Part shown: positions 4,020-53,248 of the stretch, piece after piece
Position numbering within the stretch: the stretch's first letter is position 1
How the letters are laid out: each line of letters opens with the position of its first letter
Virus record (IMG/VR): IMGVR_UViG_3300028394_002011
Direction: 5' to 3' (one strand)
Origin: a virus
DNA length: 64,000 nt
The notes under the pieces: generated by a model
What the model was told of the DNA's origin: nothing
Database searches by the model: none
What the model saw: the letters and a program-made list of their open reading frames with translations, nothing else
Made by a program: the position numbers and the translations under genes

Positions 4020-4096
4020 GTGGGTGTGCCGCTGAATGGTTAGGCCCCGGATTGCAAATCCGTTCCATGCAGGTTCGAGTCCTGTCACCCACTCCA
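4020..4096 (+). tRNA. tRNA-Cys(GCA)
   Basis: GTGGGTG/CACCCAC acceptor; loop TT-GCA-AA; T discriminator; CCA. Confidence 0.92.
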
Positions 4097-19035: not shown

Positions 19036-19060
19036 AAAATCAATATCCTTATTGGCGGAA

Positions 19061-19068
19061 TATTTATC
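19061..19068 (-). promoter_or_regulatory. late-type promoter (divergent pair)
   Basis: GATAAATA on minus; GTAAATA at 19071-19077 on plus. Confidence 0.55.
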
Positions 19069-19124
19069 AAGTAAATAGTGCTATGAAACATTTTTACTTA
19101 ACAGCTATAGGACACAATTAACGA

Positions 19125-19688
19125 ATGGAGCAACTTCTAAACAAACCTATCATATGCGAAGTTGAAACTGGAACGTCGACTCTTCAACATACTCTTTCTA
19201 ATGTTATTATACAAGGCAACGATAATAGCGAGTTGATCTATATCGATGGAGCATTCGACGGCGGCAGTCCTATCTATCTTGGACTTACAAAATCAAGAGG
19301 CGACTCACAAAATAAACTCCCTGTAGAAGCAGGCGATGTGCTAGGTGGATTGCAAGTATACGGTAGAATCAAAGCTGGTGACAGTATGGGTTACAATCAT
19401 CTTGAGACTCCGTTATGCGGCAGTGTGATGTTTAAAGTAGCAGATAACTATCAAGCAGGAGATATATCAATTCCAACTGAGTTGTTGATTGTAGTAGGAA
19501 ACGAAAAGTCTTTAGAAATAAAGATTGTTGTTGATTCAAAGGGCAATCTTAAAATAGCTGGAAATATTGAAACTGGGAATTTAACAATAACCGACGAAGC
19601 TGTGGTTCCAAGTAATCCTATTCCAACTAAGTATGTAAAAACAATATATCAGGGTGTTAGCTATGCCCTGCCACTATACCAAATTTAA
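19125..19688 (+). CDS. tail-fibre-like structural protein fragment
   Basis: TKSRG..KLPVEAGDVLGGLQVYG resembles SSKG..PTALQAGDSLGQINFQG of the 6541 fibre. Confidence 0.6.
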   Translation: MEQLLNKPIICEVETGTSTLQHTLSNVIIQGNDNSELIYIDGAFDGGSPIYLGLTKSRGDSQNKLPVEAGDVLGGLQVYGRIKAGDSMGYNHLETPLCGSVMFKVADNYQAGDISIPTELLIVVGNEKSLEIKIVVDSKGNLKIAGNIETGNLTITDEAVVPSNPIPTKYVKTIYQGVSYALPLYQI

Positions 19689-19689
19689 T

Positions 19690-20904
19690 ATGACTCCACA
19701 ATCTTTCAGTTATCCTACAGTGGGTTTAGACGGTATTATTTACGTTCCCCCATACGGGTTATCGGCATCGTTAAATTATATGTTAGCTATCAATCCTGTT
19801 ACATATGATATTCTTAAAATATCGTTGACTGTCAATTCTAGTAGTGAAAAATGGACTTTTGGTATTACGGTAGGAGATGAAATATTTTGGTTACCTTATG
19901 GAGAAGGTTGTGTATTAGTATACAATACTTTGCTCAAAACGGTTAGCTATATTAATATAGATTGGCCAGCTGGCGTTGGAGACACTCTTGGAAAATATGT
20001 ACAGGGGCATGTGTACAACAACAAAATTTATGCGCTGCCGTACGGCGAAGATAAGCCATTAGACTATCTACTTGTTATAGATTTAATAACACGAACTACC
20101 GAACTAAAATATATACCAGTTCCAATAAATGATTGTAAAAAATGGCATCAGAGCGTTCTTTATAAAAATAAAATTTACGCCGCGCCACGTGGTGCTTACA
20201 CGCCTTTTAATTTTGCGATAGAATATAACTGCGGTGATGGAACTATTAAGTTGTCTGATCTTTCTAATTTATATAAAGAACATTCAGAAACATCTATGAA
20301 ATTTACTACGATTGCACTGCTAAACGATACTATCTATGCGGCGCCGTATGGATACGACGACAACTTTGACTACATGTTAAAGAACAAGAACGGCGAGTGG
20401 AGTTGTGAACGTACTGGAATTGTTGGCACTACCCGCAAGTACTTTACTCATGTTAAAACTGCAAATAATAAATTATACTTTCCTCCAGCAGGGCATCATT
20501 CTGCATGGAGTAAGTTTTTAATCATAGATAATGGTATAACCACTATTGATTTGGATGTTACCAAGGAAACTAAAAAATACTTTGCAGGCATAGAAAACAG
20601 TCAAGGAAAAGTGTACTATATTCCACGGGGAGGTTGTGTGTGCGACCCGGATGCTGATTTAAAACTCACAGGAGATCTTGCTGAAATACTGGTAGTCGAT
20701 TCCAATGATGATAGTTATTATACTGTAGATGTAAGTGAGTGCTTTACTGACAACACAACTATTGAAAAATATAATGCCTGTTGCATTGTGAACGATGTTA
20801 TATTTGCAATGCCGTATGGAGAAAGCGAATCATTCCAAACAGTGTTAGTGTTTGATACTAAGACTGAGAAAATTATTAAGACATTGGATTTAAATGACTT
20901 ATAA
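19690..20904 (+). CDS. beta-propeller (kelch-like) protein
   Basis: About 8 repeats of (K/I)Y(A/F)xP(Y/R)G; start moved to MTPQSF. Confidence 0.75.
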   Translation: MTPQSFSYPTVGLDGIIYVPPYGLSASLNYMLAINPVTYDILKISLTVNSSSEKWTFGITVGDEIFWLPYGEGCVLVYNTLLKTVSYINIDWPAGVGDTLGKYVQGHVYNNKIYALPYGEDKPLDYLLVIDLITRTTELKYIPVPINDCKKWHQSVLYKNKIYAAPRGAYTPFNFAIEYNCGDGTIKLSDLSNLYKEHSETSMKFTTIALLNDTIYAAPYGYDDNFDYMLKNKNGEWSCERTGIVGTTRKYFTHVKTANNKLYFPPAGHHSAWSKFLIIDNGITTIDLDVTKETKKYFAGIENSQGKVYYIPRGGCVCDPDADLKLTGDLAEILVVDSNDDSYYTVDVSECFTDNTTIEKYNACCIVNDVIFAMPYGESESFQTVLVFDTKTEKIIKTLDLNDL

Positions 20905-22057
20905 ATCGTTCGAAGACTACTACAAAAAAGCCACAATTAAACACTTGGTTCTATTTAAACATGACAACTATTTGATCAGTCCACCGTTTTGTACAGACAA
21001 GTGTAAAGATTACAGTCGTGTACTGATTTACAAGGACGGAGAAGTAGTATGGGTTGATGTAGACACTCCGCCTGCTACTAGCAAATATAACTCTATGGCA
21101 AGTATAGGCAACAGCGTATTTTTTGCACCGTATGCGATATGGGACGAATTCAATACAATTTTAGAATTAGATTTTTCTGCTAATATTAAAGCAAAATATC
21201 ATTCAATAGATAGTAATGTAACTGGACAATTTTATAATATAGCATCTGACGGCATGACTGCATTCTCGGCACCGTTAGGATATAGTATTATTAATTTTGC
21301 ATTGTTTATTAAAGACGGTTCAGTTAAACAAATACCAATCCCGCCAAATGACTCTTTAAAACGTCACATGGGGTGCGTGTTTGCCAATGGAAACTATTAT
21401 AGTCCGCCACGCGGCGAAACTTTAGATTATGATAGTATTTTAAAATTCAATCCCAATACTGAAGAAGTCACAATGATTAAAGTTAATAACCTTCCTTTAA
21501 GTAAACGTAAGTACAGTGATTTTATACAGGTGGGTAACAAGTTATTTGCATTGCCATTTGGTCGTGGCGGCGATCTGCGCCATATGCTAGTATTAGATAC
21601 TATTACAGATAGTACAGAACTAGTGGAGTTGAATTTGCCGCCATTCATGAAAAAATACAATGTGGGAGTGCTACTTGACGATATTATTATAGCAGTGCCT
21701 TACGGGCACAAAGATGATGGCGACGCTAACTACGGTCTTGTGTTTAATACAACTACTTACGAACACACTACATTTGATATTGGACAATCTTTTGGAGGGA
21801 AATATCGATTTCGTTGCGGTATAGTTTATAATAATGTTGCGTTATTTTTTCCTACAGGAACGCCTAATGCCGACATAGTTGCTATAGATAAAACTGGAAC
21901 TATTATATTTAGAAAATCATTTCCTGAATATATTTTAGGAAGACCTATAGAATACAATGGGTTAATATACACGTTAGCTTATCAAGTAGTGACACAGGCG
22001 CATTGCTTAATAACACTAGATAAAGATTACAACATAAACTTTGAGGTACTATTCTAA
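20894..22057 (+). CDS. beta-propeller protein, paralogue of the upstream gene
   Basis: Repeats FAPY, SAPLG, SPPRG, ALPFG, AVPYG, FFPTG. Confidence 0.72.
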   Translation: MTYKSFEDYYKKATIKHLVLFKHDNYLISPPFCTDKCKDYSRVLIYKDGEVVWVDVDTPPATSKYNSMASIGNSVFFAPYAIWDEFNTILELDFSANIKAKYHSIDSNVTGQFYNIASDGMTAFSAPLGYSIINFALFIKDGSVKQIPIPPNDSLKRHMGCVFANGNYYSPPRGETLDYDSILKFNPNTEEVTMIKVNNLPLSKRKYSDFIQVGNKLFALPFGRGGDLRHMLVLDTITDSTELVELNLPPFMKKYNVGVLLDDIIIAVPYGHKDDGDANYGLVFNTTTYEHTTFDIGQSFGGKYRFRCGIVYNNVALFFPTGTPNADIVAIDKTGTIIFRKSFPEYILGRPIEYNGLIYTLAYQVVTQAHCLITLDKDYNINFEVLF

Positions 22058-23148
22058 TGCCAAAATGTAATGCGTTAAGCAACCACCTATGTGTTGATAC
22101 AGATGTTAGATTTAGGCCGTGCTGTGTGTTTAACAAACTTAGCGGAAATACAATTGAAGCAGGTAGCTTAGATTGGAATACATATAATCTTACGTTTCTT
22201 AGAGATGTAAAAACTGCAATGGAAACTGGATGGCACGCAGGCTGCGAGGGTTGCAGACTTGATGAAGAGCTTGGCAAAGGTAGTCCACGTATGCGGTACA
22301 ATCAAACATTCACAGGTGTTGATAATCAATTAGAATTTTTAGATATTAGTTTTGCAAATGAATGTAATTTAACTTGCAAAATGTGCGGCCCACCTGCTAG
22401 TAGCAAATGGGAAAAGTTAATTATCAAGCATCCAGATTTAAAAACATATCGGTATTATCAATTGAATGACTATGCTAATAGATCGGTGCATAGTATATTA
22501 CAATCTTTAGATTTTAAATACGTAAACGAGATAAAATTACAAGGCGGTGAACCGTTCATTGGTAATAATTTAGAATTGATGATACAAGAAATTAAAAATA
22601 AAGGATCTTTAGAAAATATTTCTTTACGTACAAGTACTAATTGCACAGCGTTTCCTAAATCTGTAGTTTCTGATCTATTAAAATTTAAAAGATTATCAAT
22701 AGCATTAAGCATTGATGGCATCGATGAGTTGTGTAATTATATACGAACCGGGTGTTCTTGGGAGAAGGTATTTAAAGTAGTTGAAAAATGGATTGAACTT
22801 GCTAGTACTAATCCGCAAATTCATCTTAACATAGCTTTTACATTACAGGCATTAAATTTGCATCAGTTCTTATTAGTAAAACAATGGGCGGCTCATCATA
22901 ACATACCAATTTATATTGATTTGCTGAAAGGGCCGCCGGAGTTATCCATTTATAGTTTGCCAAAAGATTATATCATGGAGTTAGATAATAATGGGTTATT
23001 AGATGATGAACTAAAACGATTGTTAGTTGGTCCTAGTTATGACCCAACAAATTTATTAAAATTAATAACAATGCAGGATGTTGCTATGAAAACTAGTATT
23101 GAAGAAACAATACCAATGTTACACAAAAGTTTAACTAACTTTTTTTAA
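22057..23148 (+). CDS. radical SAM protein with N-terminal SPASM/twitch domain
   Basis: CNLTCKMC; GGEP; N-terminal RPCC...CEGC. Confidence 0.9.
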   Translation: MPKCNALSNHLCVDTDVRFRPCCVFNKLSGNTIEAGSLDWNTYNLTFLRDVKTAMETGWHAGCEGCRLDEELGKGSPRMRYNQTFTGVDNQLEFLDISFANECNLTCKMCGPPASSKWEKLIIKHPDLKTYRYYQLNDYANRSVHSILQSLDFKYVNEIKLQGGEPFIGNNLELMIQEIKNKGSLENISLRTSTNCTAFPKSVVSDLLKFKRLSIALSIDGIDELCNYIRTGCSWEKVFKVVEKWIELASTNPQIHLNIAFTLQALNLHQFLLVKQWAAHHNIPIYIDLLKGPPELSIYSLPKDYIMELDNNGLLDDELKRLLVGPSYDPTNLLKLITMQDVAMKTSIEETIPMLHKSLTNFF

Positions 23149-24033
23149 ATAAATATCACTTAGGCAGGTACACTTAGTATTTCCACATACAATCGGATCT
23201 GTAGGTAGTATATATTGTTCAAGAGTTCCAATCTTGCCACCGTACAAACAATCACTACGATAGATGTCTCCCCAATGATCCACGCAGATCATATCGATGC
23301 CTGCCCAACACTTCCATCCTGCATGATTATTTTTACCCGACATAATTAATTCGTTGGCACTGATTTCAACTCCATCTAGTAACAGTTTGCCTCTATGTAA
23401 TTTTTGGTCTGGTAAGTTACGTAAAAATTTCCATTCTTTAATTATTTTAAGTTGGGCAACTGAGAAATTTCCAGGATTGTTAGTATAAGAACCTTCTTGT
23501 TTATCAAGTACTACTTTTGGCCACATTGCAACAGTGGGTGATGCATTATACAAAGTTTCAGCTATGGATAACATATTGTCAAAATTTTCTGGAGTAAACA
23601 TAACATTAACTCCTTTAAGCCCATCAACGTTTTGTAAGATAGAAACAAAATGATTTATATTAGCATACTCTGGATGATAGCTTAATATCATGCCATCAGT
23701 ATATTGCGACAATTGTTGATAGTACTCTACTGTTTGACTTCCGTTAGTTAGGTAACTAAAAATATGACCTTTGCTTTTAACTAGTTTAGCAAGCGAAAGA
23801 AAATGTTTCCAATGAGTAGGCTCTCCACCACTTATACGATAGCAAACTTCTTTACCTGCATAATCAAAGTTTTCTACAAATTGTTTGACAGTAGCCCAAT
23901 CAGGCCACCCTGATGACCCATCATGCAAAAATGTTGGGCAATAACTGCATTTGTAGTTACATTTATTTCCCAAGGTCCAACTAACTAAAAACCAATTTGC
24001 CTTGGCAGGATCGTAATATGTTAATTCGCTCAT
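23131..24033 (-). CDS. radical SAM protein (C-terminal Cys cluster)
   Basis: CNYKCSYC; SGGEP; C-terminal CWAG...C...CTC. Confidence 0.92.
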   Translation of the reverse strand: MSELTYYDPAKANWFLVSWTLGNKCNYKCSYCPTFLHDGSSGWPDWATVKQFVENFDYAGKEVCYRISGGEPTHWKHFLSLAKLVKSKGHIFSYLTNGSQTVEYYQQLSQYTDGMILSYHPEYANINHFVSILQNVDGLKGVNVMFTPENFDNMLSIAETLYNASPTVAMWPKVVLDKQEGSYTNNPGNFSVAQLKIIKEWKFLRNLPDQKLHRGKLLLDGVEISANELIMSGKNNHAGWKCWAGIDMICVDHWGDIYRSDCLYGGKIGTLEQYILPTDPIVCGNTKCTCLSDIYLKKVS

Positions 24034-24686
24034 TGACTCATCATATTTTTTAGAATAGTATTGAAATTCTTTTCAGTCATTTTAACAGTAAGTATCATTG
24101 AATATACGCTATCTGTAAAACTAAAAACACTATGTTCAAGTTGAAAATTAACAAAGTATACATATCCAGGATCAAGGTAAACTGGTTTGCCATCGATCAT
24201 TTGCACAAAATGTTCTGGCTTGCATTTCCCAAATACAATAATTAACCTAATATAATCTGGAGAATAGCCAGGGTGATCAATATGTGGAGGGAAATAACCG
24301 CCAGCACCTATTTTTAAAAAATGCACACGACCAATGTCAGGTGTGAACATATCTATAATTTCTTGAATTTGTGGAAGAGCATGATACACTTCTGTAGGAG
24401 TTATAAAATTATCTTCACGCATTTCTTCAGTGTGATACTCTTGCATATAGCCAAAACTGTTAAGGTGATAGTTGTCCATGACATCACCAGTGTGGCTAGT
24501 AACAGGCAGTCCCCACCTGTTGTTGTGGCTATCTTTTTTTACATTATACGGGCACCAATTGTTCTTAAATTTTTCTAAATCATGCTCTAACTTACTAGGG
24601 TCAACACACATTTGTAATTTAATATATTGCCCCATGTTAGCAAGACTGTTAAACAACAGTCCTCTTTCAATTTCATCTTGTGTCAT
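24030..24686 (-). CDS. Asp/Asn beta-hydroxylase-family oxygenase
   Basis: GGYFPPHID ... YFVNFQLEHSVF. Confidence 0.75.
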   Translation of the reverse strand: MTQDEIERGLLFNSLANMGQYIKLQMCVDPSKLEHDLEKFKNNWCPYNVKKDSHNNRWGLPVTSHTGDVMDNYHLNSFGYMQEYHTEEMREDNFITPTEVYHALPQIQEIIDMFTPDIGRVHFLKIGAGGYFPPHIDHPGYSPDYIRLIIVFGKCKPEHFVQMIDGKPVYLDPGYVYFVNFQLEHSVFSFTDSVYSMILTVKMTEKNFNTILKNMMSQ

Positions 24687-24703
24687 GTGTTGTTCTCTTT
24701 GGA

Positions 24704-26002
24704 TTATCTTAAATTACTTAATTCTGGAAATATTTTTCTAAAATTAGTGCCGCGTTGGGCATCGCATGTTTCTAAATATTCAATGGTTGAAGGAAGTTTG
24801 CTAGACCAATCTTCGGACATCATATATTTAATTATTCCCATCCACCGTTGCAAGCCATACGAATTTGACATAAACTCTAAGTCGTGTGTGTTTTTAGAAC
24901 AAAAATAAGTTATTTGAGATTCTATTTCTTTTTTAATGTGTATAGGTAAAACCCTAATACTAAGATAGCTAGGAAGATAAACCAAATGAGTACCTATCAA
25001 TCCTGCACCGTACGGTGGCATGTTGATCTTCTTAAAATTCATACTGCGTTTCCATTGTACTAGATCCGGTAAATTCATTATGTTTAATAATTGCACAGCA
25101 CAGGCTATGTTTACAATAATGTTATCCGGTGTATCATCTAATCGTTGAAGATTCTTAATAATAGTTGACCACTTGCTTGGATATCTAATGTAATCGTTCT
25201 TCTCTCCCACAGCGTCAATGCTAAAATTAAATTTTACCTGTTTAAATTTACTCCACAAGTCAAATAATTTTTCTGGAAGTTCTAATCCGTTACTGTTGTA
25301 TCTTAAAACACAATCTTTAGCAACTCCGGATTCTATAATGAACTCTAGTATTTTATAATGTTCGGGTATAATTAAAGGCTCGCCGCCAGCAAAATATAAC
25401 TCTCGAATGTTACTAGCTTGGTCTTTCATGGTATCTAAGAAACTGCCTTTTTGATACCATGTATAATCAAACGTTAAATCCCAGCCTTGATCTTGTTTAA
25501 GATCTATAGTCTTATATTTTGGATACTGTATCTTCCATTCTTTGATCCAACTACTACTGTCATGAGGACTACACATCACACACTTGAGTTGGCACATATT
25601 TCCTAATCGTAAATCAAAGTACGGAATGTTAACTGGAAGACTTCCATCGGCCTCGGTTTGAGATACAATACTATCAATATTCAATCGATCTTTCCACACT
25701 ATTGTTTCCCAATTACGCTTACTTTTAATACCTTGGCTTTCTTCCTGGAAACATTTGGTACAACTACTTGGAATTTTATTATCCAGCATTTGTAATCTCA
25801 CATTGCGCATAAATTCACTATTCCAAACTTCTGTAATAGTGTGCGTTTTAAGATTCATGCCTGTTACAAGACCTGCATCCTTAACATCAACCATACCCGC
25901 ACCGCTGGCATTTGCTGTACAGCATACTCTAACATCGCCGTTTGGCCGGGTAGCAAGATGTATCCACGGTAGCGGACAGAATGTATTACTTTGATTTGAC
26001 AT
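24704..26002 (-). CDS. radical SAM protein with N-terminal SPASM/twitch domain
   Basis: CQLKCVMC; AGGEP; CPLPWIH...GDVRVCC...CTKC. Confidence 0.93.
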   Translation of the reverse strand: MSNQSNTFCPLPWIHLATRPNGDVRVCCTANASGAGMVDVKDAGLVTGMNLKTHTITEVWNSEFMRNVRLQMLDNKIPSSCTKCFQEESQGIKSKRNWETIVWKDRLNIDSIVSQTEADGSLPVNIPYFDLRLGNMCQLKCVMCSPHDSSSWIKEWKIQYPKYKTIDLKQDQGWDLTFDYTWYQKGSFLDTMKDQASNIRELYFAGGEPLIIPEHYKILEFIIESGVAKDCVLRYNSNGLELPEKLFDLWSKFKQVKFNFSIDAVGEKNDYIRYPSKWSTIIKNLQRLDDTPDNIIVNIACAVQLLNIMNLPDLVQWKRSMNFKKINMPPYGAGLIGTHLVYLPSYLSIRVLPIHIKKEIESQITYFCSKNTHDLEFMSNSYGLQRWMGIIKYMMSEDWSSKLPSTIEYLETCDAQRGTNFRKIFPELSNLR

Positions 26003-26030
26003 TTTTATATTTTGTGTACCATGCTTAGTT

Positions 26031-26885
26031 TCATTTCATTAAGTATCGTAATAACGGACTTAGTCCAACAAAATTGCCAGTTTGATTAAACGCCATATGT
26101 ATTGCATTAGACGGAGTCAGATTAAAATCTTTACAGATCTTAGCATTTAAATCTCCGTAAGAACTCCAAAGATAATCTGACTGAACATTATCAAGTATAT
26201 AGTTCCCAACGATAGCTCCCATTCTCAATTCCATGTGAAAGTCATTCATTATACTGATACTGTCAGGCAACAGATGTTTTGACCAACGTAAGCCGATTCT
26301 GTTCCAGCCAAGACCTAATCCCTTGCTCAAACTTATGCCCACGGATTTGATTGCAGGATGACCTATATCAAAGTCAATTCCGCGGCAACAAGTAAGCCAA
26401 GCACCATCCACATGTACATCAACATTTTTGTCTTGTGCTTCATTTAATATCTCCGTCATTTGATTATGTACTGCACCTGTGCTAGGAAATGGCATTGCAA
26501 TAATTAAAGGTATGCTTTCTTTTAGTGTACCTGGATATGTTGCTTGGTTGCCTAGTCTTTCATGGTACCGATAATCTCCAACAATAACTTGAGGTGGTCC
26601 TTGCATGTAGATATTATCTATAAATTGAGTACACCCGTTTATAATGTCCACACGATTAAAATTGTTAAAGCCTGATAGATGATTTAATCTTGAATCAAGT
26701 ATCCATTTACTAGCCTTTTCTTTAAATGTAGTGTTGGCAGTTATTCTGTGGTCGACTTCAAGTCCGCCGAAGCCGGTCATTACTTTTGAAAATAATGATT
26801 CTAAATGATTATCGCATAATGCTTGAGGCCGTTCAACTTCTAACCATTTAGCATCATATTCGGGAGCTATTTTTACTCGTTCCAT
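26031..26885 (-). CDS. PLP-dependent enzyme (fold type I)
   Basis: VHVDGAW and SLSKGLG (Schiff-base Lys). Confidence 0.75.
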   Translation of the reverse strand: MERVKIAPEYDAKWLEVERPQALCDNHLESLFSKVMTGFGGLEVDHRITANTTFKEKASKWILDSRLNHLSGFNNFNRVDIINGCTQFIDNIYMQGPPQVIVGDYRYHERLGNQATYPGTLKESIPLIIAMPFPSTGAVHNQMTEILNEAQDKNVDVHVDGAWLTCCRGIDFDIGHPAIKSVGISLSKGLGLGWNRIGLRWSKHLLPDSISIMNDFHMELRMGAIVGNYILDNVQSDYLWSSYGDLNAKICKDFNLTPSNAIHMAFNQTGNFVGLSPLLRYLMK

Positions 26886-28150
26886 TCTACTATCATCCTA
26901 TGACATCTGGGGAAAATTATTTTCCAATCTTTACCTTGTATTGCAGACATCTTTATAAAAAAGTTTAATAAATCTTTTCTGCCTTGCACAATTTCTTTGT
27001 CAGTCATAGGAAGGGTTTTAGAATACTCTTCCCATTGGGTTAGCATTGTCAATATTCTGTGGTTATCCGTTTGTTCTTTAAGATATTTAAATATTTCCAA
27101 ATGTTGCTTGGCAGTCATTAATCGTAAATTTAAATATTTTGGATTCATCACAGGATGACTTACTATATCAGAAAACGTATTAAGGTTAATCTTTTTAAAT
27201 TGTTTGCTCTCTAACCATTGCATCCACGTAACAAAGTGCTCAATGTTTAAAATTGATAAAGTTGTGCTAGTGAAGATAGAAAAATGATCGGGCATGCCAT
27301 CTAAAAAATCTAAGTTTTTTTCAATTACGTTCCATTTAGTTGGATAACGTATGGCCTCATTAACTTCGCCATACGCATCAATGGAACAACATAATTTAAC
27401 AAATTTAAATTGACTGATAGCATCTAGGAATTCTTTAGGAATGACTGTGACATTGATGCTGTACTCTAATTCAATATTTTTGGAAAATCCCTGCTCTATT
27501 AAATTTTTTAATAATATCAAGTGTTGTTTAACAAGCCACGGTTCACCGCCGCCAAATTTGATTTTTTGCAAATACTCTGAATGGTCAGTTAACAGTTGAT
27601 AATAGTCTTGCTGATTGCACCAATCAAAATGTTCGTGACCGTCTGTGCTATAAGTAACATGATCTATCATGAACACTTTAGATCCTGTAATTTGTTCTTG
27701 TATCTTATTCCACTGATTACTTTCGCCAGGATAGCACATAACACATTGCAGGTTACATTTATTACCTAGCCTTAAATCCATTGATAGTACCCGTTGTTCG
27801 GTCACAGTTCCGTCCAGCAGTGTGATTCGTTCAGCATCCTCTCTGGTAAAGTCATACATGGTCGCTTCCCATTGGTTGCGACTACGTTTTCCGGCAGCTT
27901 GCTCTAGTTTACAACGCCGGCATTGTTCCGGCCATTCGTTATTAAGAAATTTTATTCTAACATCTTTTAAAGTATCAGAATTTAATGCTTGATCAATATC
28001 ATTTATTCTTAAAAGTCTTCCATCTTTTTCAAGTAACGTATTTTTATTGCCGCCACTTTGGCTATGAGAGCATACCCGTAGATATCCGTTACTTTTAACA
28101 GCAACATGACTCCATGGGATAGGACACCATACGTTATCTAAATTGTTCAT
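26873..28150 (-). CDS. radical SAM protein with N-terminal SPASM/twitch domain
   Basis: CNLQCVMC; GGGEP; CPIPWSH...CRRC. Confidence 0.92.
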   Translation of the reverse strand: MNNLDNVWCPIPWSHVAVKSNGYLRVCSHSQSGGNKNTLLEKDGRLLRINDIDQALNSDTLKDVRIKFLNNEWPEQCRRCKLEQAAGKRSRNQWEATMYDFTREDAERITLLDGTVTEQRVLSMDLRLGNKCNLQCVMCYPGESNQWNKIQEQITGSKVFMIDHVTYSTDGHEHFDWCNQQDYYQLLTDHSEYLQKIKFGGGEPWLVKQHLILLKNLIEQGFSKNIELEYSINVTVIPKEFLDAISQFKFVKLCCSIDAYGEVNEAIRYPTKWNVIEKNLDFLDGMPDHFSIFTSTTLSILNIEHFVTWMQWLESKQFKKINLNTFSDIVSHPVMNPKYLNLRLMTAKQHLEIFKYLKEQTDNHRILTMLTQWEEYSKTLPMTDKEIVQGRKDLLNFFIKMSAIQGKDWKIIFPRCHRMIVEWNE

Positions 28151-29117
28151 TGGCCTTGTCTACTTCGCCGCATTGTTTAGTACATGCTCGCAAGGGTTTA
28201 TTAGACCACGTTTCTTCAATACGATTGAAAAATTGACTTTCAAATATATCTTCAAATGATTGTGTATTAAGATTTGGATTAACGAACCCTTGGTCTTTGT
28301 AATCAACTAGACTAAAGGTGTTGGGTGTTGTTCCAGTATAATCTAACCAACAACACGGAGTAACACTACCGTCTGCTCCTACAAACAAACTTTTATCTTT
28401 TTTAACTTTACAATTTATTTTTTTTGTTTCTTCCAATTTGATGGAAAACAATTTCTTAGATATATCAATGCTTCTTTCGGTAGGGTAAATTATATGGCTA
28501 GTCTTGCCTTCTTTGGTGAGAACTGGCAAGTGCCCATCTCGGAATCTAGCAGAATTCTTTTGTACAAATTCTGAGAATCCTAACTTTTCACTTAAACTCC
28601 TACATTCATCTATTTGATGTTTGTTGTGTTCGAACACTAACATGTGCCATCTTGCTAGGCCACCAGACTGAATAAAGACTGTGGCATTGTTAATTATCTT
28701 ATCAAAATTAGTTCCGATTCGATACAATGAATGTGTATCAGCTAACCCGTCAATACCAAATGTAACAAACACATTCAATTTGGCCAATTGTTCCCACCAT
28801 TTTTCTGATTGTGCGCTGCCATTAGTATGCAACCCTAGTTCTATGTTTGAGTTATGCTCTCTAACATACTGGAATACTTTAAGTGTATCTTTAGCAACTA
28901 TGGCATCGCCTGAGTTACCGCACATGAATAATTTGGTTAGCTGTTTGATAAAGGGAATAGGAAACCATTTTTTGAATTGGTCTATAGTAATTTCTGTTTC
29001 TATTAACCAAGGGTTTGCAATGCCGCCTTGTATATTACGTTGACACATCGGACAACTGGCTTGACATTTGTTTGTTAATTCTAAATGAATTTCTTTAATT
29101 TGATCTAATTTATACAT
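28134..29117 (-). CDS. radical SAM protein with C-terminal SPASM domain
   Basis: CQASCPMC; C-terminal C...DGSVTPCC...CTKQC. Confidence 0.92.
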   Translation of the reverse strand: MYKLDQIKEIHLELTNKCQASCPMCQRNIQGGIANPWLIETEITIDQFKKWFPIPFIKQLTKLFMCGNSGDAIVAKDTLKVFQYVREHNSNIELGLHTNGSAQSEKWWEQLAKLNVFVTFGIDGLADTHSLYRIGTNFDKIINNATVFIQSGGLARWHMLVFEHNKHQIDECRSLSEKLGFSEFVQKNSARFRDGHLPVLTKEGKTSHIIYPTERSIDISKKLFSIKLEETKKINCKVKKDKSLFVGADGSVTPCCWLDYTGTTPNTFSLVDYKDQGFVNPNLNTQSFEDIFESQFFNRIEETWSNKPLRACTKQCGEVDKANEQFR

Positions 29118-29730
29118 TTTTATGTCCTATAACCATCCATCGTTTGTATAACGGTAGTTCTAATTCTCCAGCCCATAATATTTCAAGTTGGCATTGCTCT
29201 TTAAATTCTTCTAAATCTTTAGAGATGCGCACATGTTCGGGAATGTTATAGTTATTGCTTTGAAGAACTAACAAACTATTTTGAGGGTGTCCACTAAGCC
29301 ATAAATCATATTGATCTTGTGTAATATGTTCACAACTAGTATTAATAATAATATCGGCATCACTTCTTATGGCACACATATCCGATGTAATTGCTCGAAA
29401 CTTTCCTAATATTTCCTCACCCTTATTCATCATAGTAGCAATAGATTCACAACTAGGATCTATATCAATACTGCGAATACTAGCTACCGGGATCCTACTT
29501 TGAAACATCATGCTGGCAAGAACACCAACCCACCCACCGTGAATGTCTATAGAAAAAGGCTTAGGCAATGTACAATCAACTTGAGGATGAACAACTAACT
29601 CTAACGAATTAATTAGCCACTCTTTACTTTTAAGTTGTCCTGACCAAAAGGCATCCATGGTCCGAATAGGATCTGGACTTTGTCGAATAGCTTGCATCCA
29701 ATAGTGTAAGTGTTCTGTATCAATTTTCAT
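29110..29730 (-). CDS. class I SAM-dependent methyltransferase-like protein
   Basis: DIHGGWVG motif I; SIDIDP motif II; INTSCEH. Confidence 0.7.
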   Translation of the reverse strand: MKIDTEHLHYWMQAIRQSPDPIRTMDAFWSGQLKSKEWLINSLELVVHPQVDCTLPKPFSIDIHGGWVGVLASMMFQSRIPVASIRSIDIDPSCESIATMMNKGEEILGKFRAITSDMCAIRSDADIIINTSCEHITQDQYDLWLSGHPQNSLLVLQSNNYNIPEHVRISKDLEEFKEQCQLEILWAGELELPLYKRWMVIGHKNV

Positions 29731-30911
29731 AAGTCAATTGCTCTTGTTTTTTTGCCCATTGCATTTCGTGGAACAGCATCTATGTATGTAAATTTTCTAG
29801 GAACACTGAAGTCTGGTAACTTTTTAAGAAATATTTCATTCATGGCAGTTTTATTAGTAACAGCGTTCTTATTAGTAAAAAATAATTCTATCCAATCTGT
29901 GCCTAAACTGTTTCTGACAACTGCAACGGCCTCTCCCAACTCCGCATCGTCTTCGGCAATTGTTTCAATGGCTAATAAACTAGCTTTAAATCCATTTAAT
30001 TTAACAATGTCATTTGACCTGCCTATAAATTTAATCATGTTATCTTGTTGATCCCACAAATCGTGAGTATTAAACCAACCATCAGTTAGTCCAAAGTCTT
30101 GTATATTAGCACACAGAGTTGGCCCTTTGATCCATAACTCTTTATTCATTATTTTAAACTCAGCAGACTGAGTTGAAGTTAAATTTAAGTATCTTGCAAA
30201 ATCGTCAGAGTTTGTTGATAATCGATGTAATATAGGAGTACCTACTTCCGTAGTTCCATACATGTGATTTAGAGCTTTTCCTTTATTTTTAAAAAAGAAT
30301 TCTACATGGCGATCAAGTACTGCCGAAGAACCTATTCCTACTTTATTATATTTTGAAAAATCAATAGGAACATTTCTCAAGCGTAAGTAGTCCATTAGTG
30401 CTGGTACTATAATAGTAACATTAGTATTTTGATTAAGATCATCTAGAATTGTTTCTCTTGATCCTAGCACTATGGAAAAATTGTGTTCTATTAAAGAAGG
30501 AATAATCATATTCCAAAACCCAACTGTAAATGCTGGTAACAGATTTAAAAATTTAACATTACTATCCCATCCCATGATAGTAGTAGACGAAATAATTGCG
30601 TGTTGTATCTGCTGTTTTTGATGCACAGCAATTTTAGGCAATCCGGTAGTGCCGCTAGTATGAAAAAACAAAGAGTCATTGTATGGTAAAGTTAAAACTT
30701 TCTCGTCTAGATACGACAACTCTGTTTTTGAAAGAAATGGTGCTTTAATAAAAATATTGCCGCCTACTGTCATCCAAGCGACATAAGCGGCAATATGCTC
30801 AGCGTGATCTATCGAACAGATTGTTACTACCTGTTCCTTTTTTAACTTATCTACATAATCTAAAACTTTATTCGATAGGTTAAGTAAAAGTCCGTTCTGA
30901 TAAATCTTCAA
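29727..30911 (-). CDS. AMP-binding acyl-CoA synthetase-like protein
   Basis: HTSGTTGLPK, YGTTE, GRSND, RNAMGK. Confidence 0.88.
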   Translation of the reverse strand: MKIYQNGLLLNLSNKVLDYVDKLKKEQVVTICSIDHAEHIAAYVAWMTVGGNIFIKAPFLSKTELSYLDEKVLTLPYNDSLFFHTSGTTGLPKIAVHQKQQIQHAIISSTTIMGWDSNVKFLNLLPAFTVGFWNMIIPSLIEHNFSIVLGSRETILDDLNQNTNVTIIVPALMDYLRLRNVPIDFSKYNKVGIGSSAVLDRHVEFFFKNKGKALNHMYGTTEVGTPILHRLSTNSDDFARYLNLTSTQSAEFKIMNKELWIKGPTLCANIQDFGLTDGWFNTHDLWDQQDNMIKFIGRSNDIVKLNGFKASLLAIETIAEDDAELGEAVAVVRNSLGTDWIELFFTNKNAVTNKTAMNEIFLKKLPDFSVPRKFTYIDAVPRNAMGKKTRAIDL

Positions 30912-30912
30912 T

Positions 30913-31485
30913 TTAAAACCTTCGAACTAAAAAAACTCTATATTGATTACTTTCGTAATCTCCGTAAGTTAATGCATACCCTGCCTCAACACTAACGTTT
31001 GGAGTAATCTTATAACCTAAACCGACACCATACAGATTTGTCTTCCATAATGACGAAGTATCATAGTTATTACGATATCGATACATAACATCTCCATATA
31101 TTTTTGATGTAAAATCATATTTTGTTCCGACAGTCAATGCGTAGTAGTTATAATCCGTTGCCGTTGCAGAATTAATATCTCTGCGGCCAACTGCTATCTG
31201 AGCATACGGCATGAATTGATCTATCTTTTTGGTATAACCTGTATATGCCTCATATCTTGATTCTGAAGGTATCGTTGTAAGTTCAGGATACCCTTTTTGG
31301 ATACTTGTTCCTAGATAGACTCCGTTATCATATCTATAAGATACTGCTACTTGATAAAGGTCAACAGTAAATGTTTTAGGGTAAGTGATATTTTCTTGGC
31401 CCACGCCTGCCGCAACCACAACAGTACCTGCCTGGGCTGTGGCCATACAGATCATACTTGCTAATATTGTTATTAATTTTTTCAT
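30913..31485 (-). CDS. outer-membrane beta-barrel protein
   Basis: Signal peptide MKKLITILASMICMATAQA (start moved to 31485); alternating aromatic beta-strands; C-terminal Phe. Confidence 0.75.
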   Translation of the reverse strand: MKKLITILASMICMATAQAGTVVVAAGVGQENITYPKTFTVDLYQVAVSYRYDNGVYLGTSIQKGYPELTTIPSESRYEAYTGYTKKIDQFMPYAQIAVGRRDINSATATDYNYYALTVGTKYDFTSKIYGDVMYRYRNNYDTSSLWKTNLYGVGLGYKITPNVSVEAGYALTYGDYESNQYRVFLVRRF

Positions 31486-31892
31486 ACAGATACCTTTCTC
31501 CAAGAAATTAAGTTCCAAGCACGTTCGTGTGCATAATGTACAACAATAAACAAAACATTAGTTACTATGGTCCACTCAATTGCGTCAGAACTTTGTAGAC
31601 CCATTACTATACCAAACACAAACAAAACAATCAACGACCAAATTCTCCATGTAATCGTTTTGGCAACAGTTCTCTTATGTAACTCATGAATTCCTTCCAT
31701 TCCCCATTTGACTCTAAGCCATAGTCGTTCTTGTATGTAAAATGTTAGAGATCCTAAAGTGTAAACCAAAATCACAAACTTCAATCCAAATCCGGCTCCG
31801 TAATTCATAACAATTGATGCAATGAATATTGATAATGCTACTGCTGTTCGATATGACAGCGTTTTAATAATAGTTCTTAAATTACTTTCCAA
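31482..31892 (-). CDS. DUF2061-like membrane protein (two repeats)
   Basis: ES..RTIIKTLSYR...YIQERLW and KRTVAKTITWR...YAHERAW. Confidence 0.75.
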   Translation of the reverse strand: MESNLRTIIKTLSYRTAVALSIFIASIVMNYGAGFGLKFVILVYTLGSLTFYIQERLWLRVKWGMEGIHELHKRTVAKTITWRIWSLIVLFVFGIVMGLQSSDAIEWTIVTNVLFIVVHYAHERAWNLISWRKVSV

Positions 31893-32877
31893 AATTATTC
31901 TCCTGTTTTATTTTTGGTATTTTTGAATCCGCAGAACTAACACATCTAGGAGTTGTGCAAGTCACCGGAGTTGTAAAAAGTTTAAAATCTTGTAATGTTC
32001 CTAACGGGACGTCATAACAGCTATACGATCGTTTTACTTCATTACCTCTTATTATAACACTTTGATAACCCGAATTACAAGTCCAATTGGTAAATTCATT
32101 AAATCCAAAAGCATTAAACCTTTCAGCTTGGTCAAATAGGTATTCGTCACCTTGTGAATCGTATAACGCCACTTGATAAACTTCCTCATCATCGGTACGT
32201 TGAGGAAACCCTGTTTGCATTTTATATATCATATCCTCATTATACCCCTCTACAATTGCGGTTGCTGACGGATTGCTTTGCGGTTTCAATGTAACGTTGA
32301 TGCCTCGGCTATGAAATCGTTCCATGCGGTCGTATAACTCATAAAACTTTTCAGGCACCATTACTTGATTGATTGTAACATGTACTAGTTCATACATTAA
32401 CTGTAAACACTTGTCGCCAAACTCTTGCTCTTTGGCAAACTCATCGTGATAACTGGCCGTGATACTCCTGCGTTGTAGCATTTCAGTATTAGTACACCAA
32501 GTGTTCCACCACTTACTTCCTGGCGACAAATTAGTTGTCATGTGTATACTTTGATAGGGCGTTTGTACTCCGTCATCCAAGTATTTGGTTAGTTCTAGTA
32601 AATGTTTATATGCAGTAGGCTCACCTCCACTGAACGACCAGTGGAACTGGTTAAACCCATTGGCTCGTGCTTGACGCTTAATCTCGTCTACAGTAGATTT
32701 ATATACTTCAAATGGTTGGTGATCCATTTGGTCACTGCGAGCATAGGGCCAACAGTAACTACAATTATAGTTACAAAACCTACCTAGGATCCAACTGGTA
32801 GAAAATAATGGTTTGGTTAACATTGTACGCTGTCCAAAACGTACAATATTCTTGAATGGAATATCTGTAAAGTTCAT
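31882..32877 (-). CDS. radical SAM protein
   Basis: CNYNCSYC; SGGEP; C-terminal CNSG...C...C..S; same subtype as 23131. Confidence 0.92.
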   Translation of the reverse strand: MNFTDIPFKNIVRFGQRTMLTKPLFSTSWILGRFCNYNCSYCWPYARSDQMDHQPFEVYKSTVDEIKRQARANGFNQFHWSFSGGEPTAYKHLLELTKYLDDGVQTPYQSIHMTTNLSPGSKWWNTWCTNTEMLQRRSITASYHDEFAKEQEFGDKCLQLMYELVHVTINQVMVPEKFYELYDRMERFHSRGINVTLKPQSNPSATAIVEGYNEDMIYKMQTGFPQRTDDEEVYQVALYDSQGDEYLFDQAERFNAFGFNEFTNWTCNSGYQSVIIRGNEVKRSYSCYDVPLGTLQDFKLFTTPVTCTTPRCVSSADSKIPKIKQENNFGK

Positions 32878-32934: not shown

Positions 32935-32963
32935 TTGACTTTAATCCAAAATGGCTATATAAT
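32935..32963 (+). promoter_or_regulatory. sigma70-type promoter
   Basis: TTGACT-17-TATAAT, 6 nt before the tRNA-like RNA. Confidence 0.82.
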
Positions 32964-32969
32964 TACATG

Positions 32970-33065
32970 GTAGATGTGAGTGGAATCTGGTAGACCTCCA
33001 GCTTGCTGGGAACAGGGCTAGGCTATTAGCTGCCTTTGTAGGTTCGAATCCTACCATCTACACCA
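32970..33065 (+). ncRNA. tRNA-like RNA lacking a canonical anticodon arm
   Basis: Perfect 7 bp acceptor GTAGATG/CATCTAC + A + CCA; T-arm GTAGG-TTCGAAT-CCTAC; Leu-type D loop; CCAG-CTTG-CTGG hairpin in the anticodon position; long extra arm. Confidence 0.8.
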
Positions 33066-33094: not shown

Positions 33095-33427
33095 ATGAAA
33101 AAGGCACTGATAGTATTGTTAATGTTTGTGGGAACAGTTCAGGCTAGCGAACAGTTTTCTACAAATTCTAATGTTGTTACAACTAGTACCATCAAGTGGA
33201 TACAAGTTGACAATGTATTCGAAGCTTGCGATACTGAAAGTAAAAATCGTGGCAACGGCGGTTTTGCAAGATTAGGTTCAGGCCAAAAGATGGACGGTTG
33301 TTCTTTTTGGTCTAACACTACTCCAAACAAAACTAATATGTGTACTATTATCACAGCAAAGACTACAGACCACGATACAGTAGGTCACGAAGTCCGGCAT
33401 TGTTTCCAAGGCAATTTCCATAAATGA
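33095..33427 (+). CDS. secreted hypothetical protein (HExxH at C-terminus)
   Basis: Signal peptide; GHEVRHCF. Confidence 0.75.
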   Translation: MKKALIVLLMFVGTVQASEQFSTNSNVVTTSTIKWIQVDNVFEACDTESKNRGNGGFARLGSGQKMDGCSFWSNTTPNKTNMCTIITAKTTDHDTVGHEVRHCFQGNFHK

Positions 33428-33991: not shown

Positions 33992-34162
33992 ATGGAAAAA
34001 CTAACATTTTTAGCAGAAGAAATTTTTGAAGATATTCCTGGAGACCCGGATAATGTCATGATGAAAATTCCACCGGAGATTTGCGAAGCACAAGGATGGG
34101 TTGAAGGTACTACACTGAATATTCAGGTGGAAAATGGAAAAATGATCATTAGCAAAGCATGA
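33992..34162 (+). CDS. small AbrB/MazE-like domain protein (56 aa)
   Basis: Read by eye: MKIPPEICEAQGWVEGTTLNIQVENGKMII; ATGA overlap with infA. Confidence 0.65.
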   Translation: MEKLTFLAEEIFEDIPGDPDNVMMKIPPEICEAQGWVEGTTLNIQVENGKMIISKA

Positions 34163-34377
34163 GTAAAGACGACTTACTTGAATTAACTGGACAGGTTACT
34201 GAAGTATTGCCTGGTAACATGTACAGAGTACAGTTGGACGATAATCAACATATCATATTGGCTTATCTAGGTGGCAGATTAAAACAACACAAAATTAAAA
34301 TTATTTTAGGCGATAAAGTCCGAGTGGAAGTAAGCACTTATGATTTATCAAAAGGTCGCGTAACGTATAGGTTATAA
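34159..34377 (+). CDS. infA: translation initiation factor IF-1
   Basis: MSKDD.LEL.G.V.EVLPG.MYRV.L...GDKV.VE.S.YDLSKGR.TYR. Confidence 0.96.
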   Translation: MSKDDLLELTGQVTEVLPGNMYRVQLDDNQHIILAYLGGRLKQHKIKIILGDKVRVEVSTYDLSKGRVTYRL

Positions 34378-34378
34378 A

Positions 34379-35047
34379 ATGAATGCCGTAATGGAAACTG
34401 TCAGTGCTGTTTGCAATCAAGTTAGACGCAAAAGTAAACTCGGTTCCAGTTTCCAAAATCTAGTAGTATCTCTTCGTAGAGAATTTAGGTTGGCAAAATT
34501 TAATTTAAAAATTAAATCCACTAGAGATAAAGTACTAGGGCCCGAAGAATTTTATGTTAACGCATATTATGATGCCGAAGAAGATCAAAATAACGAAACA
34601 CCTATAGAAGTAGTTGTGCATCATAATTTTGATAATACAGTTATTTGGGATACTACACAAACTACAGAATTCTTAATTCAAATTTTTGACGCCACTATAC
34701 ATGAATTCAAACACCAACGACAAAGCGTAAAACGAAAATATGTAATCTATTCAGACTACGTTAAAAAACCCTACAAAGATTATTTAGAAGAAGACGACGA
34801 AATTGATGCTTATGCATTTAGCATAGCCGTTGAACTATGTCGTGCTTTAGGAAAATATCGTGCATTACGATATATGCATAGGGTATCTTCTCTAGCCAAA
34901 TTAAAGTTTAATGGCAAATTCGTTAGTCCGTGTTTGGCTTCTTATTTTGGACAGTTTGGAGATTTAACCAATCCTGTAATCAAACGGCTAACCAAAAAGG
35001 TCTATGTACGCCTGCAAAAGATTGACACAGATGCCGTCTTCGTGTAA
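34379..35047 (+). CDS. HExxH putative metalloprotease-like protein
   Basis: HEFKHQRQ ... DEIDAYA; paralogue of 42740. Confidence 0.65.
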   Translation: MNAVMETVSAVCNQVRRKSKLGSSFQNLVVSLRREFRLAKFNLKIKSTRDKVLGPEEFYVNAYYDAEEDQNNETPIEVVVHHNFDNTVIWDTTQTTEFLIQIFDATIHEFKHQRQSVKRKYVIYSDYVKKPYKDYLEEDDEIDAYAFSIAVELCRALGKYRALRYMHRVSSLAKLKFNGKFVSPCLASYFGQFGDLTNPVIKRLTKKVYVRLQKIDTDAVFV

Positions 35048-35083: not shown

Positions 35084-35776
35084 ATGGCTAACAAAGAGTT
35101 TCCAACCCAACAAGTTCTAGAGCTGGCTTGTGCGGCACAACGAGTAAACGGTGCTTATATCAAGGAAGCACAGGCTGTTTACTCGGACGACAATATCTAC
35201 ATGTATTCCAAACAGACCAATAAATTAATGATGTTGTGTACACTCGATCCTGCCATTTGGACTGCCGATCCTAAAGAAGCACCAATGCCTTTAAAGGTAC
35301 TTGCCGAAGATACTGCTCTAGCAGAAGAAATCAAAAAACATTTTCGAAAATTCTTGTTCAGTGCTATCGAAGGTGAGAATGATTTTCAAACTAATATAAA
35401 CACAATACTGTCGGGCGATACAGTTAAACAAAATCAATTTGGTTATGTGGCTTGCTTGCCCAGTGTATATGTAAGAGACATTGCTCAATCTAAAGTTAAG
35501 AAGGCCGCACGGTCAGTTGAAGAAGGTTACTTGTCAGATATTGGTAGTAATCTTAAAGACTTGGATGCAGAAATAATTTCCTCAATCAAGTCAAAAAACT
35601 TTGAAGGTTACAATATAGATGCTATAATCAACAGTAAGATGTGCTCTTGGCTAAACAAAACTAACTTGCAGTTGGGTGCATGTATTATTGTCAAAGCCAA
35701 AGTTAAAGATCACTCTAAACACTGGAAGCACGGCAACGATGTTACTAGACTTAACTACGTAAAGGCGGCACAATGA
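35084..35776 (+). CDS. hypothetical protein (possible C-terminal OB fold)
   Basis: 230 aa with RBS; C-terminal KAKVKDH...TRLNYVK. Confidence 0.8.
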   Translation: MANKEFPTQQVLELACAAQRVNGAYIKEAQAVYSDDNIYMYSKQTNKLMMLCTLDPAIWTADPKEAPMPLKVLAEDTALAEEIKKHFRKFLFSAIEGENDFQTNINTILSGDTVKQNQFGYVACLPSVYVRDIAQSKVKKAARSVEEGYLSDIGSNLKDLDAEIISSIKSKNFEGYNIDAIINSKMCSWLNKTNLQLGACIIVKAKVKDHSKHWKHGNDVTRLNYVKAAQ

Positions 35777-50043: not shown

Positions 50044-50837
50044 AATTTATTTTTTTAAAATCAGGAGATTATTTAGAGTTTACTCCAAGACCTACTAAGT
50101 TTGTTGGAGAGTGGTTTGATTTTTTGTTTAAAAATGGAATTGCTCACCAATTTACTAATCAAGAACAATCGTGGGCGACAACTAGCAGTGAGCAATATAT
50201 GACTGAGATCAATCAGCATATTGATATTGTAAATCATTTTTTAAGAATTTCTTTACCCGTTGTTACTGAATTTAGAAAGAATTCTAATATAAATCAAAAA
50301 TGGTTAAATGGTCTGCACAAATCGTGGGCCTATGCAACTCATCATTATAAAAATGAAATTTTTGTCATACCAAAAAATGTAAAAGAATCTTGGCAGGAGA
50401 TCAATAATCTAATACATAAAATTGAATTAAATTATATCCAAGTGTTTAAAAATTCTGTTGTTACAGAAATTCCTGAACTGGCAAACCTTAAAGTTACAAA
50501 AGAAGATTGCGAATTTGGACAATATGACTTAGTATTAAATTATGGCAATTTGGGACGCCATCAATTTAACCAATGGCAAGTTGGGAAGGATTGCATTGAT
50601 GATGAGACTAATAATTATCAAGTAGTAGGTACAAATTTTAGTTATTTCCAAGGAGTAGATTGCTACCCTCAATTGGAAGCACCGCCCGAATATGTAAAGT
50701 GGTGTAAAAAACAAAACTTAGAAATATTAGGGCCGTGGATTCCGTTTGGAAAATTTAAAATATCAGATTCGTGGACTGTCAAAGAAATAATGCACAGAAA
50801 TCTTAAAGACGACTTGGCAGTTGGATTTGAACGATGA
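50025..50837 (+). CDS. hypothetical protein
   Basis: 270 aa within the island. Confidence 0.75.
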   Translation: MDQFNMKFIFLKSGDYLEFTPRPTKFVGEWFDFLFKNGIAHQFTNQEQSWATTSSEQYMTEINQHIDIVNHFLRISLPVVTEFRKNSNINQKWLNGLHKSWAYATHHYKNEIFVIPKNVKESWQEINNLIHKIELNYIQVFKNSVVTEIPELANLKVTKEDCEFGQYDLVLNYGNLGRHQFNQWQVGKDCIDDETNNYQVVGTNFSYFQGVDCYPQLEAPPEYVKWCKKQNLEILGPWIPFGKFKISDSWTVKEIMHRNLKDDLAVGFER

Positions 50838-53247: not shown

Positions 53248-53248
53248 T

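Follow-up and report, generated by a model that had tools for sequence, protein, structure and literature searches.

Here, we describe a tRNA-shaped RNA without an anticodon, encoded with its own promoter and its own CCA at positions 32970–33065 (+) of the window (the whole stretch of viral DNA that was analysed, 64,000 nucleotides from IMG/VR record IMGVR_UViG_3300028394_002011). The 96-nt RNA is a working RNA and not a broken gene, and it belongs to a family of phage RNAs that is real and under selection for structure, its design being shared by far more than one hundred uncultured giant phages. tRNA mimics are already a known kind; a free-standing, CCA-ending, anticodon-less family is, judging by Rfam and the literature searched, new. 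We tentatively favor a trans-acting role in which the RNA receives leucine but does not enter the ribosome.

The gene and its promoter comprise the following elements, with "aligned members" referring to the 74-member alignment described below.

32935–32940 (+), −35 hexamer TTGACT
32958–32963 (+), −10 hexamer TATAAT, after a 17-nt spacer and 6 nt before G1
32970–32976 (+), 5′ strand of the acceptor stem, forming seven Watson-Crick pairs with 33055–33061
32977–32996 (+), U8, G9 and the D region, containing GGAAUCUGGUAGAC
32998–33009 (+), stub of the anticodon arm, CCAG-CUUG-CUGG, 4 bp with the tetraloop CUUG at 33002–33005
33014–33036 (+), long extra (variable) arm, in which a UA bulge separates 5 bp from a further 4 bp closed by a 3-nt loop
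33037 (+), U48, candidate Levitt partner of A15, invariant in 74/74 aligned members
33038–33054 (+), T arm with 5 bp, the loop TTCGAAT and an A-U pair at 51–63
33055–33065 (+), 3′ strand of the acceptor stem, A73 (33062) and CCA (33063–33065)

An earlier reading made from the letters of this DNA (hereafter the sequence-only reading) had listed the acceptor, A73-CCA, T arm, D loop and extra arm, and all of these are present, as is the short capped stem that it had seen in place of an anticodon arm. The near-consensus σ70 promoter that it had placed 6 nt ahead of the RNA matches the consensus at 11 of 12 positions, and transcription should, as predicted from this promoter, start at G1 or about 1 nt off. 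A U·G pair between 32997 and 33010 can extend the stub to an arm spanning 32997–33010 (+), again without an anticodon. The 7-bp acceptor, the 5-bp T stem, a T loop of the form UUCRAnY and G18G19 are all present, as in members of the tRNA family (RF00005). Within the window, no ORF of at least 40 aa overlaps the RNA on either strand, and the next ORF begins 29 nt after the CCA, with no terminator in the gap.

The first relative was identified in IMG/VR (L001) through an exact match to the 3′ half of the RNA. It has the same body and an extra arm with compensatory changes, its "anticodon arm" is a different, longer hairpin, and ARAGORN made no call on it at all. Scanning viral contigs with a gapped pattern running from the D loop to the T loop, and metagenome contigs with a looser one, returned at least 181 loci with at least 107 distinct RNAs of 96–119 nt, to which a pattern for T-loop variants added just two loci. 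Contig names (for example TBL_comb47_HYPODRAFT), our sole guide to habitat, suggest lake metagenomes. Five records are long, and two of these are near-complete genomes of 345 and 356 kb (CheckV 94–96%) with exactly one copy of the RNA each, scoring 96–121 bits. The long records place the RNA 23–40 kb from a cluster of about 27–35 tRNA genes, on the same strand.

The phages that carry the RNA are distant T4-like myoviruses without a close cultured relative. Blastn searches with an 800-bp region and with the RNA alone found no family member among 50,697 cultured-phage records, returning just T-arm matches to ordinary tRNAs, and the exact D-region pattern had no match in 185,579 prokaryote genomes. 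We built a covariance model (R1) from 74 relatives; on T4, PA5oct and phiN3 it detected just class II tRNAs, at no more than 39 bits. The window RNA scores 103.5 bits with R1 against about 38 bits at most for a genuine tRNA, and the feature is far beyond chance. We found no tRNA family that is free-standing, ends in CCA and lacks an anticodon described in Rfam or in the literature searched.

Structural conservation was examined in an alignment (A1) of 74 distinct members with the structure specified by hand. Across A1, 98.1% of the cells are paired and 15 of 25 pairs show double-sided changes; the covariation score is 0.317 compared with 0.126 for shuffles (0 of 500 reach the observed value), and moving the partners by 1–3 columns lowered it to 0.09 or less. 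Double-sided compensatory changes occur in five of the seven acceptor pairs, where 99.4% of the cells are paired, and in seven of the nine pairs of the extra arm, while the T arm is 100% paired with two of its five pairs covarying (all in the 74 relatives). RNAalifold, which was not supplied with the structure, recovered the same acceptor, extra and T helices. It also placed 5 bp as an "anticodon stem", and 22–24 sequences show covariation at the two inner pairs of this stem. Covariation thus supports the acceptor, stub, extra and T helices. The D stem has just two invariant pairs, and its register is ambiguous. Folded singly by minimum free energy, the sequence does not form the cloverleaf and its fold does not reach significance (z = −1.2), an uninformative outcome that is common for tRNAs.

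The promoter is conserved along with the RNA. Among the matches listed, there are 126 distinct upstream regions, and the first hexamer (−35) begins with TTG in all 126 and reads TTGAC(A/T/C) in 114; 123 match the σ70 consensus at 9 or more of 12 positions, 122 have a 17-nt spacer, and in 123 the distance from the −10 hexamer to the first base of the RNA is 6 nt. The first base of the RNA is G in 124 of these 126 and A in two. Compensatory evolution together with a conserved promoter excludes decay. The sequence-only reading had judged the RNA "designed rather than decayed", and the compensatory helix changes, the conserved promoter and the lack of a normal loop in the homologues bear this out.

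That reading had also named homologues with a normal anticodon loop as the observation that would count against it. A 5-bp stem closing a 7-nt loop with U33/R37 occurs in 0 of 107 distinct members among the matches listed. These 107 members carry, in place of an anticodon arm, one of the following.

Short stem with a CUUG cap (the window type), 12 distinct members
7-bp stem with a UUCG or UUUG cap, 14 distinct members
Longer hairpin with a GNRA cap, 20 distinct members
Small hairpin preceded by an internal AGUA/GAA motif of loop-E or sarcin-ricin-like type, 46 distinct members
Other hairpins, 15 distinct members

The stub stem covaries, and the CUUG cap is confined to 12 of the 107 members among the matches listed, with other caps elsewhere. 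One and the same extra arm occurs with up to four arm inserts (13, 17 and 35 nt), indicating that the arm tip changes fast by insertion and deletion while the rest stays constant. In total, we counted at least 50 distinct arm inserts in an otherwise constant body, with covariation also found inside the inserts. With the arms predicted here, no family member can decode.

Standard tools treat these genes as tRNAs or miss them. ARAGORN labels the window RNA tRNA-Pro(GGG) because it takes one half of the extra arm for part of an anticodon arm, and the Rfam tRNA model scores it at 29.8 bits against a threshold of 29, with 23 nt taken as an insertion in the anticodon loop; at E values up to 10, no Rfam family other than tRNA matches it. 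The sequence-only reading had anticipated an undetermined or pseudo call and was mistaken in this, since ARAGORN named a tRNA and the Rfam threshold was narrowly passed. ARAGORN found no tRNA in 90 of 114 relatives among the matches listed, and its calls on the short relatives conflict (Pro-GGG, Pro-AGG, Gly-GCC, Ser-GCT, Arg-UCG and 4-base "anticodons"). Because the relatives receive no anticodon or mutually inconsistent ones, both calls on the window RNA are artefacts, and the pattern of ARAGORN calls is what one expects where an anticodon is absent. The two calls are also what speaks for an ordinary or decaying tRNA, be it tRNA-Pro(GGG), an intron-containing tRNA or a pseudogene, an explanation that we consider extremely improbable: the Pro(GGG) fold breaks the covarying extra arm, and near relatives are assigned differing anticodons or, as in the 90 without a call, none. 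Covariation, the inconsistent calls and the 0 of 107 anticodon loops among the matches listed refute it. tRNA finders that overlook such genes or mislabel them as Pro, Gly, Ser or Arg introduce errors into phage tRNA censuses.

As judged by R1, tRNA-Leu is the closest relative of the RNA, and its ancestry is leucine-like. The best non-self matches of the model are genuine tRNA-Leu genes: that of the window scores 38.4 bits, that of a relative 39.9 bits and that of T4 34.5 bits, followed by phage tRNA-Tyr at 39 and 32.5 bits. Column counts in the 74-member alignment show that U8, A14/A15, G18G19 and UA (U20, A20a) are invariant; the Leu-like D loop is nearest to the D loops of the phages' own tRNA-Leu, yet 2 nt longer. 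Separately, we observed that the tRNA-Leu(CAA) of the window (88–164, +) is just 77 nt long with a variable region of about 6 nt, and that its counterparts in relatives have 81–90 nt.

Few systems allow a tRNA to be charged once its anticodon is lost, and leucine is one of them. A73, A15:U48, G18G19, A20a and D/T-loop contacts suffice for leucine identity in E. coli, and LeuRS requires neither the anticodon nor the extra arm, so that arm-less tRNA-Leu variants are still charged (PMC9976931). A73 is invariant in 74/74 members of our family while the acceptor stem beneath it varies freely, and the columns for A15:U48, G18G19, A20a, U8:A14, U54:A58 and G19-C56 are likewise invariant in all 74, with their pairing inferred from sequence. 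These features are consistent with chargeability by LeuRS under the E. coli rules, which may not be those of the host. The 3–70 pair is A-U, G-C or, in 5 of 74 members, G-U.

The T stem differs from that of genuine tRNA-Leu. A51–U63 is invariant in the family. Among 94 genuine tRNAs that these phages encode, 19 have this pair, but none of the 11 tRNA-Leu does. This pair has been tied to weak EF-Tu binding in the non-proteinogenic tRNA-Gly of Staphylococcus aureus (PMC4052509), and by analogy it hints weakly at poor EF-Tu binding here; the 49–65 pair is G-C in the family, not A49–U65.

The sequence-only reading had suggested the RNA as a possible amino-acid donor for an adjacent island, a tie for which we find no support. 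A divergent radical-SAM gene lies upstream of the RNA, inside a larger rSAM/SPASM block, in 96 of 114 loci among the matches listed. The RNA is transcribed away from the island and heads the opposite operon, with a promoter of early type for a T4-like phage, and both RNA and promoter are retained in loci without the rSAM gene (L001, L036, L020, L005 and L008). The 96/114 adjacency reflects related phages, whose shared gene order is weak evidence for a functional link, and we reject the island link. RNA and promoter are also still there in GNRA-type loci, which have other downstream genes, and the RNA is retained in type-D loci, where the downstream genes are replaced. As gene order breaks on both sides while RNA and promoter stay, the RNA is an independent module.

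A same-strand ORF follows the RNA in all loci inspected, and the RNA therefore heads an operon. Downstream of it, the window encodes two paralogous signal-peptide proteins, an IF-1 homologue, an HExxH protein, an OB-fold protein and a metallophosphoesterase, including the following.

33095–33427 (+), first ORF of the operon, 110 aa, with a signal-peptide-like N terminus; among the matches listed, its protein cluster lies within 5 kb of the RNA in 88 of 114 loci, nearly always downstream
34159–34377 (+), IF-1 homologue (PF01176, 1e-21), 1.1 kb downstream of the RNA and found in 62 related loci among the matches listed
34379–35047 (+), conserved 222-aa protein with an invariant HExxH
35084–35776 (+), conserved 230-aa protein (AF2 pLDDT 88.6) with an OB fold at residues 148–230 (Z 7–7.8)

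Among the neighbors of the RNA we found no tRNA-specific function: a 206-aa neighbor gave just a weak methyltransferase lead, and the adjacent rSAM protein has no PDB relative by sequence. Across two near-complete and three partial genomes, we found no class Ia aminoacyl-tRNA synthetase, EF-Tu, CCA-adding enzyme or Pth, and no L/F-transferase, FemAB or MprF C-domain; TROVE/Ro60 (PF05731) is absent from five records, two of them 94–96% complete. With no such phage genes found, any partner of the RNA is a host protein or an unrecognised phage protein.

Several other features of this DNA are unusual. The 64 kb contain at least 14 radical SAM/SPASM ORFs in two blocks (17758–32877 and 47384–56179), which is uncommon for a phage, and near them lie a tryptophan-halogenase-like gene (10573–12102, −), an AMP-binding enzyme (29727–30911, −) and an OMP beta-barrel-like protein (30913–31518, −). 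The stretch from the tRNA cluster to the mimic is hypervariable, with about 4 kb of other genes in L001 (3100–7400) and about 26 kb in the window (6500–32900). A tRNA with the anticodon GCA (Cys) at 4020–4093 (+) scores 43 bits with Rfam, has no encoded CCA and was overlooked by ARAGORN. Three related genomes further encode a 92-nt tRNA whose anticodon is UAU, whose D arm is odd and whose extra arm is long (L120 10896–10987, L121 2212–2303 and L122 4209–4300, all −); the L120 copy adjoins tRNA-Phe, and its counterpart would fall just outside the left end of the window.

We propose the following path from gene to function. Host RNA polymerase would start at or beside G1 from the early-type σ70 promoter, a start that would leave little or no 5′ leader to trim, and the 3′ end would be freed from the polycistronic transcript as for CCA-encoded tRNAs. 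The RNA would then fold into the tRNA L-shape with its elbow and acceptor end intact. Since none of the LeuRS identity elements that are independent of the anticodon has been lost, the host LeuRS would most likely leucylate it, and because a capped stub replaces the anticodon loop, the ribosome would not select it. Shut out of the ribosome, the RNA would thereby carry activated leucine to a non-ribosomal acceptor reaction, performed by a host enzyme of the L/F-transferase type or by an unrecognised phage enzyme. The structure with its conservation, the missing anticodon, the promoter and the invariant identity elements are what we show; we infer expression, 3′ processing, charging and use of the leucine from sequence.

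That the RNA is a natural aminoacyl carrier without an anticodon, charged by LeuRS, unusable by the ribosome and reserving its leucine for a non-ribosomal reaction (N-terminal leucylation or a phage transferase), is possible but doubtful. We prefer it on the strength of the anticodon-independent ancestor, the invariant A73, A20a and A15:U48, and a T stem unlike that of genuine tRNA-Leu. Several observations stand against the carrier. E. coli LeuRS is sensitive to where G18G19 sits and the D loop exceeds that of the phages' tRNA-Leu by 2 nt, the E. coli rules may not apply to the host, and the two near-complete and three partial genomes contain no known aminoacyl-tRNA-dependent transferase. A donor that works through its acceptor end alone also leaves unexplained the lengthened and kept extra arm and the loop-E-like protein-binding motif in 46 of 107 members among the matches listed, and shallow divergence of the family could be part of the reason why the D and T loops do not vary. 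Nearly as likely as the leucylated carrier, and about as guarded a proposal, is a decoy: an uncharged or incidentally charged competitive inhibitor, produced early and in large amounts, that would occupy a host factor directed at parts of tRNAs other than the anticodon, whether to attack or to sense them. Such a factor could be a nuclease cutting the class II variable arm or a CCA-end-modifying enzyme, and the decoy would leave phage translation undisturbed since the RNA cannot decode. Its position first in an operon with an early-type promoter fits such a role, as do the enlarged extra arm conserved by covariation, the loop-E-like motifs, which suggest protein binding, and the absence of a phage-encoded partner transferase from the examined genomes. 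A precedent exists in Septu and retron-Eco7, whose PtuAB cuts the variable-arm stem of tRNA-Tyr and against which phages deploy tRNA genes (PMC13096335). After tRNA-Leu, phage tRNA-Tyr stands nearest to our family, at 39 bits. Against the decoy, no target is assigned and the extra arm's sequence varies freely, catalytic toxins are hard to titrate, and a decoy would not need the invariant A73, A20a and A15:U48. The sequence-only reading had included decoys for RelA- or T-box-type sensing. RelA and T-box both read the anticodon, making such a decoy unlikely.

The remaining explanations appear weaker than either of these. It is unlikely that the RNA is a cis-acting 5′ module of the downstream operon, serving processing, stability or translation control and without a job once freed. 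The missing terminator before the next ORF, the same-strand ORF in all loci inspected even with differing gene content, and the constant position at the very 5′ end of the transcript would suit such a module; yet a processing signal needs just an acceptor and a T arm, which leaves the invariant D-loop positions, A73, U48 and two further kept arms unexplained, the RNA is kept in the type-D loci, and the absence of a 5′ leader gives RNase P nothing to cut. We regard as distinctly improbable a scaffold in which the tRNA body provides stability and maturation, the arm insert, be it a loop-E-like motif, a C-rich loop or GNRA, binds a protein or RNA, and the window copy is minimal or without insert. 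The diversity of covarying inserts in a constant body and the AGUA/GAA motif in 46 of 107 members agree with it, but in 26 of the 107 (12 with CUUG, including the window RNA, and 14 with UUCG or UUUG, all among the matches listed) the insert is a tetraloop-capped stem alone, under the same constraints and with compensatory changes in the stub. Since these members are equally constrained, the body itself must carry the function. More improbable still is a modulator directed at the ribosome or a translation factor, working with the co-transcribed phage IF-1 homologue and the OB-fold protein. The IF-1 gene shares the operon in the 62 related loci, and the protein next but one has its OB fold at the C terminus; this is synteny among related phages alone, and the OB fold is a generic one, seen here with middling Z scores. 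We know of no mechanism by which an anticodon-less tRNA acts on the ribosome without an SmpB-like partner.

The RNA shares features with several known systems and is distinct from each. Like class II tRNA-Leu (RF00005), it has acceptor and T arms of 7 and 5 bp, A73-CCA, a G18G19 elbow, A15:U48, A20a and an extra arm of the long type; it differs in having no 7-nt anticodon loop, an extra arm of 9 bp compared with 3–5 bp, a D loop longer by 2 nt, A-U at 51–63 and its own promoter 23–40 kb from the tRNA cluster. Minimalist tRNA-Leu variants without an anticodon arm continue to accept leucine provided that A73 and the D/T-loop contacts are undamaged (Larkin et al. 2002, as summarized in PMC9976931). 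By that summary, these variants are laboratory constructs, whereas the mimic is a natural, conserved gene that keeps exactly those elements and is predicted to be charged. The S. aureus non-proteinogenic tRNA-Gly (PMC4052509) is likewise a tRNA kept from translation for another pathway, and both RNAs have A51–U63. It has a normal anticodon, which GlyRS needs, and combines weak EF-Tu binding with FemXAB partners, whereas the mimic has had its anticodon removed; of the weak EF-Tu pairs of tRNA-Gly, A49–U65 and A51–U63, the mimic has A51–U63 alone and G-C at 49–65.

RNAC and RNAD of T4 are, as the mimic is predicted to be, small stable phage RNAs with tRNA-like ends; they are transcribed with tRNAs and have no assigned role (PMC3014915, PMC9697503). 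Unlike the mimic, they lie within the tRNA cluster, are classed as late RNAs (PMC9697503) and form no full cloverleaf, and we detected no homology to rnaC or rnaD, with R1 scoring rnaC at 18.9 bits through the T arm only, below ordinary tRNAs. The tRNA-like domain of tmRNA is also a chargeable tRNA mimic without an anticodon, the charging of our RNA being predicted; its alanine identity (G3·U70), mRNA-like tag region, pseudoknots and need for SmpB are all missing from the mimic, and ARAGORN made no tmRNA call on the window RNA, which is just 96 nt long. Known tRNA mimics also include the 3′ ends of plant viruses. YrlA and other bacterial and phage Y RNAs (PMC4201824) have a tRNA-like module without decoding, and some are phage-encoded; in them the Ro60-binding stem is built from the two ends and encloses the tRNA-like part, whereas the ends of the mimic form an acceptor stem with CCA.

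Phage tRNA genes are almost entirely interpreted as a help with codon usage or as substitutes for tRNAs that host defences have cut. An abundant group of phages of about 350 kb with a near-complete tRNA set nevertheless keeps an extra tRNA body without a decoding loop, and that body retains all features for folding, end maturation and anticodon-independent charging. If the RNA is a decoy, it would represent a new RNA-based counter-defence. If it is charged, the family would be a natural separation of the amino-acid-carrier function of a tRNA from decoding, and if the carrier reading is true, the RNA would be the first dedicated non-decoding aminoacyl-tRNA.
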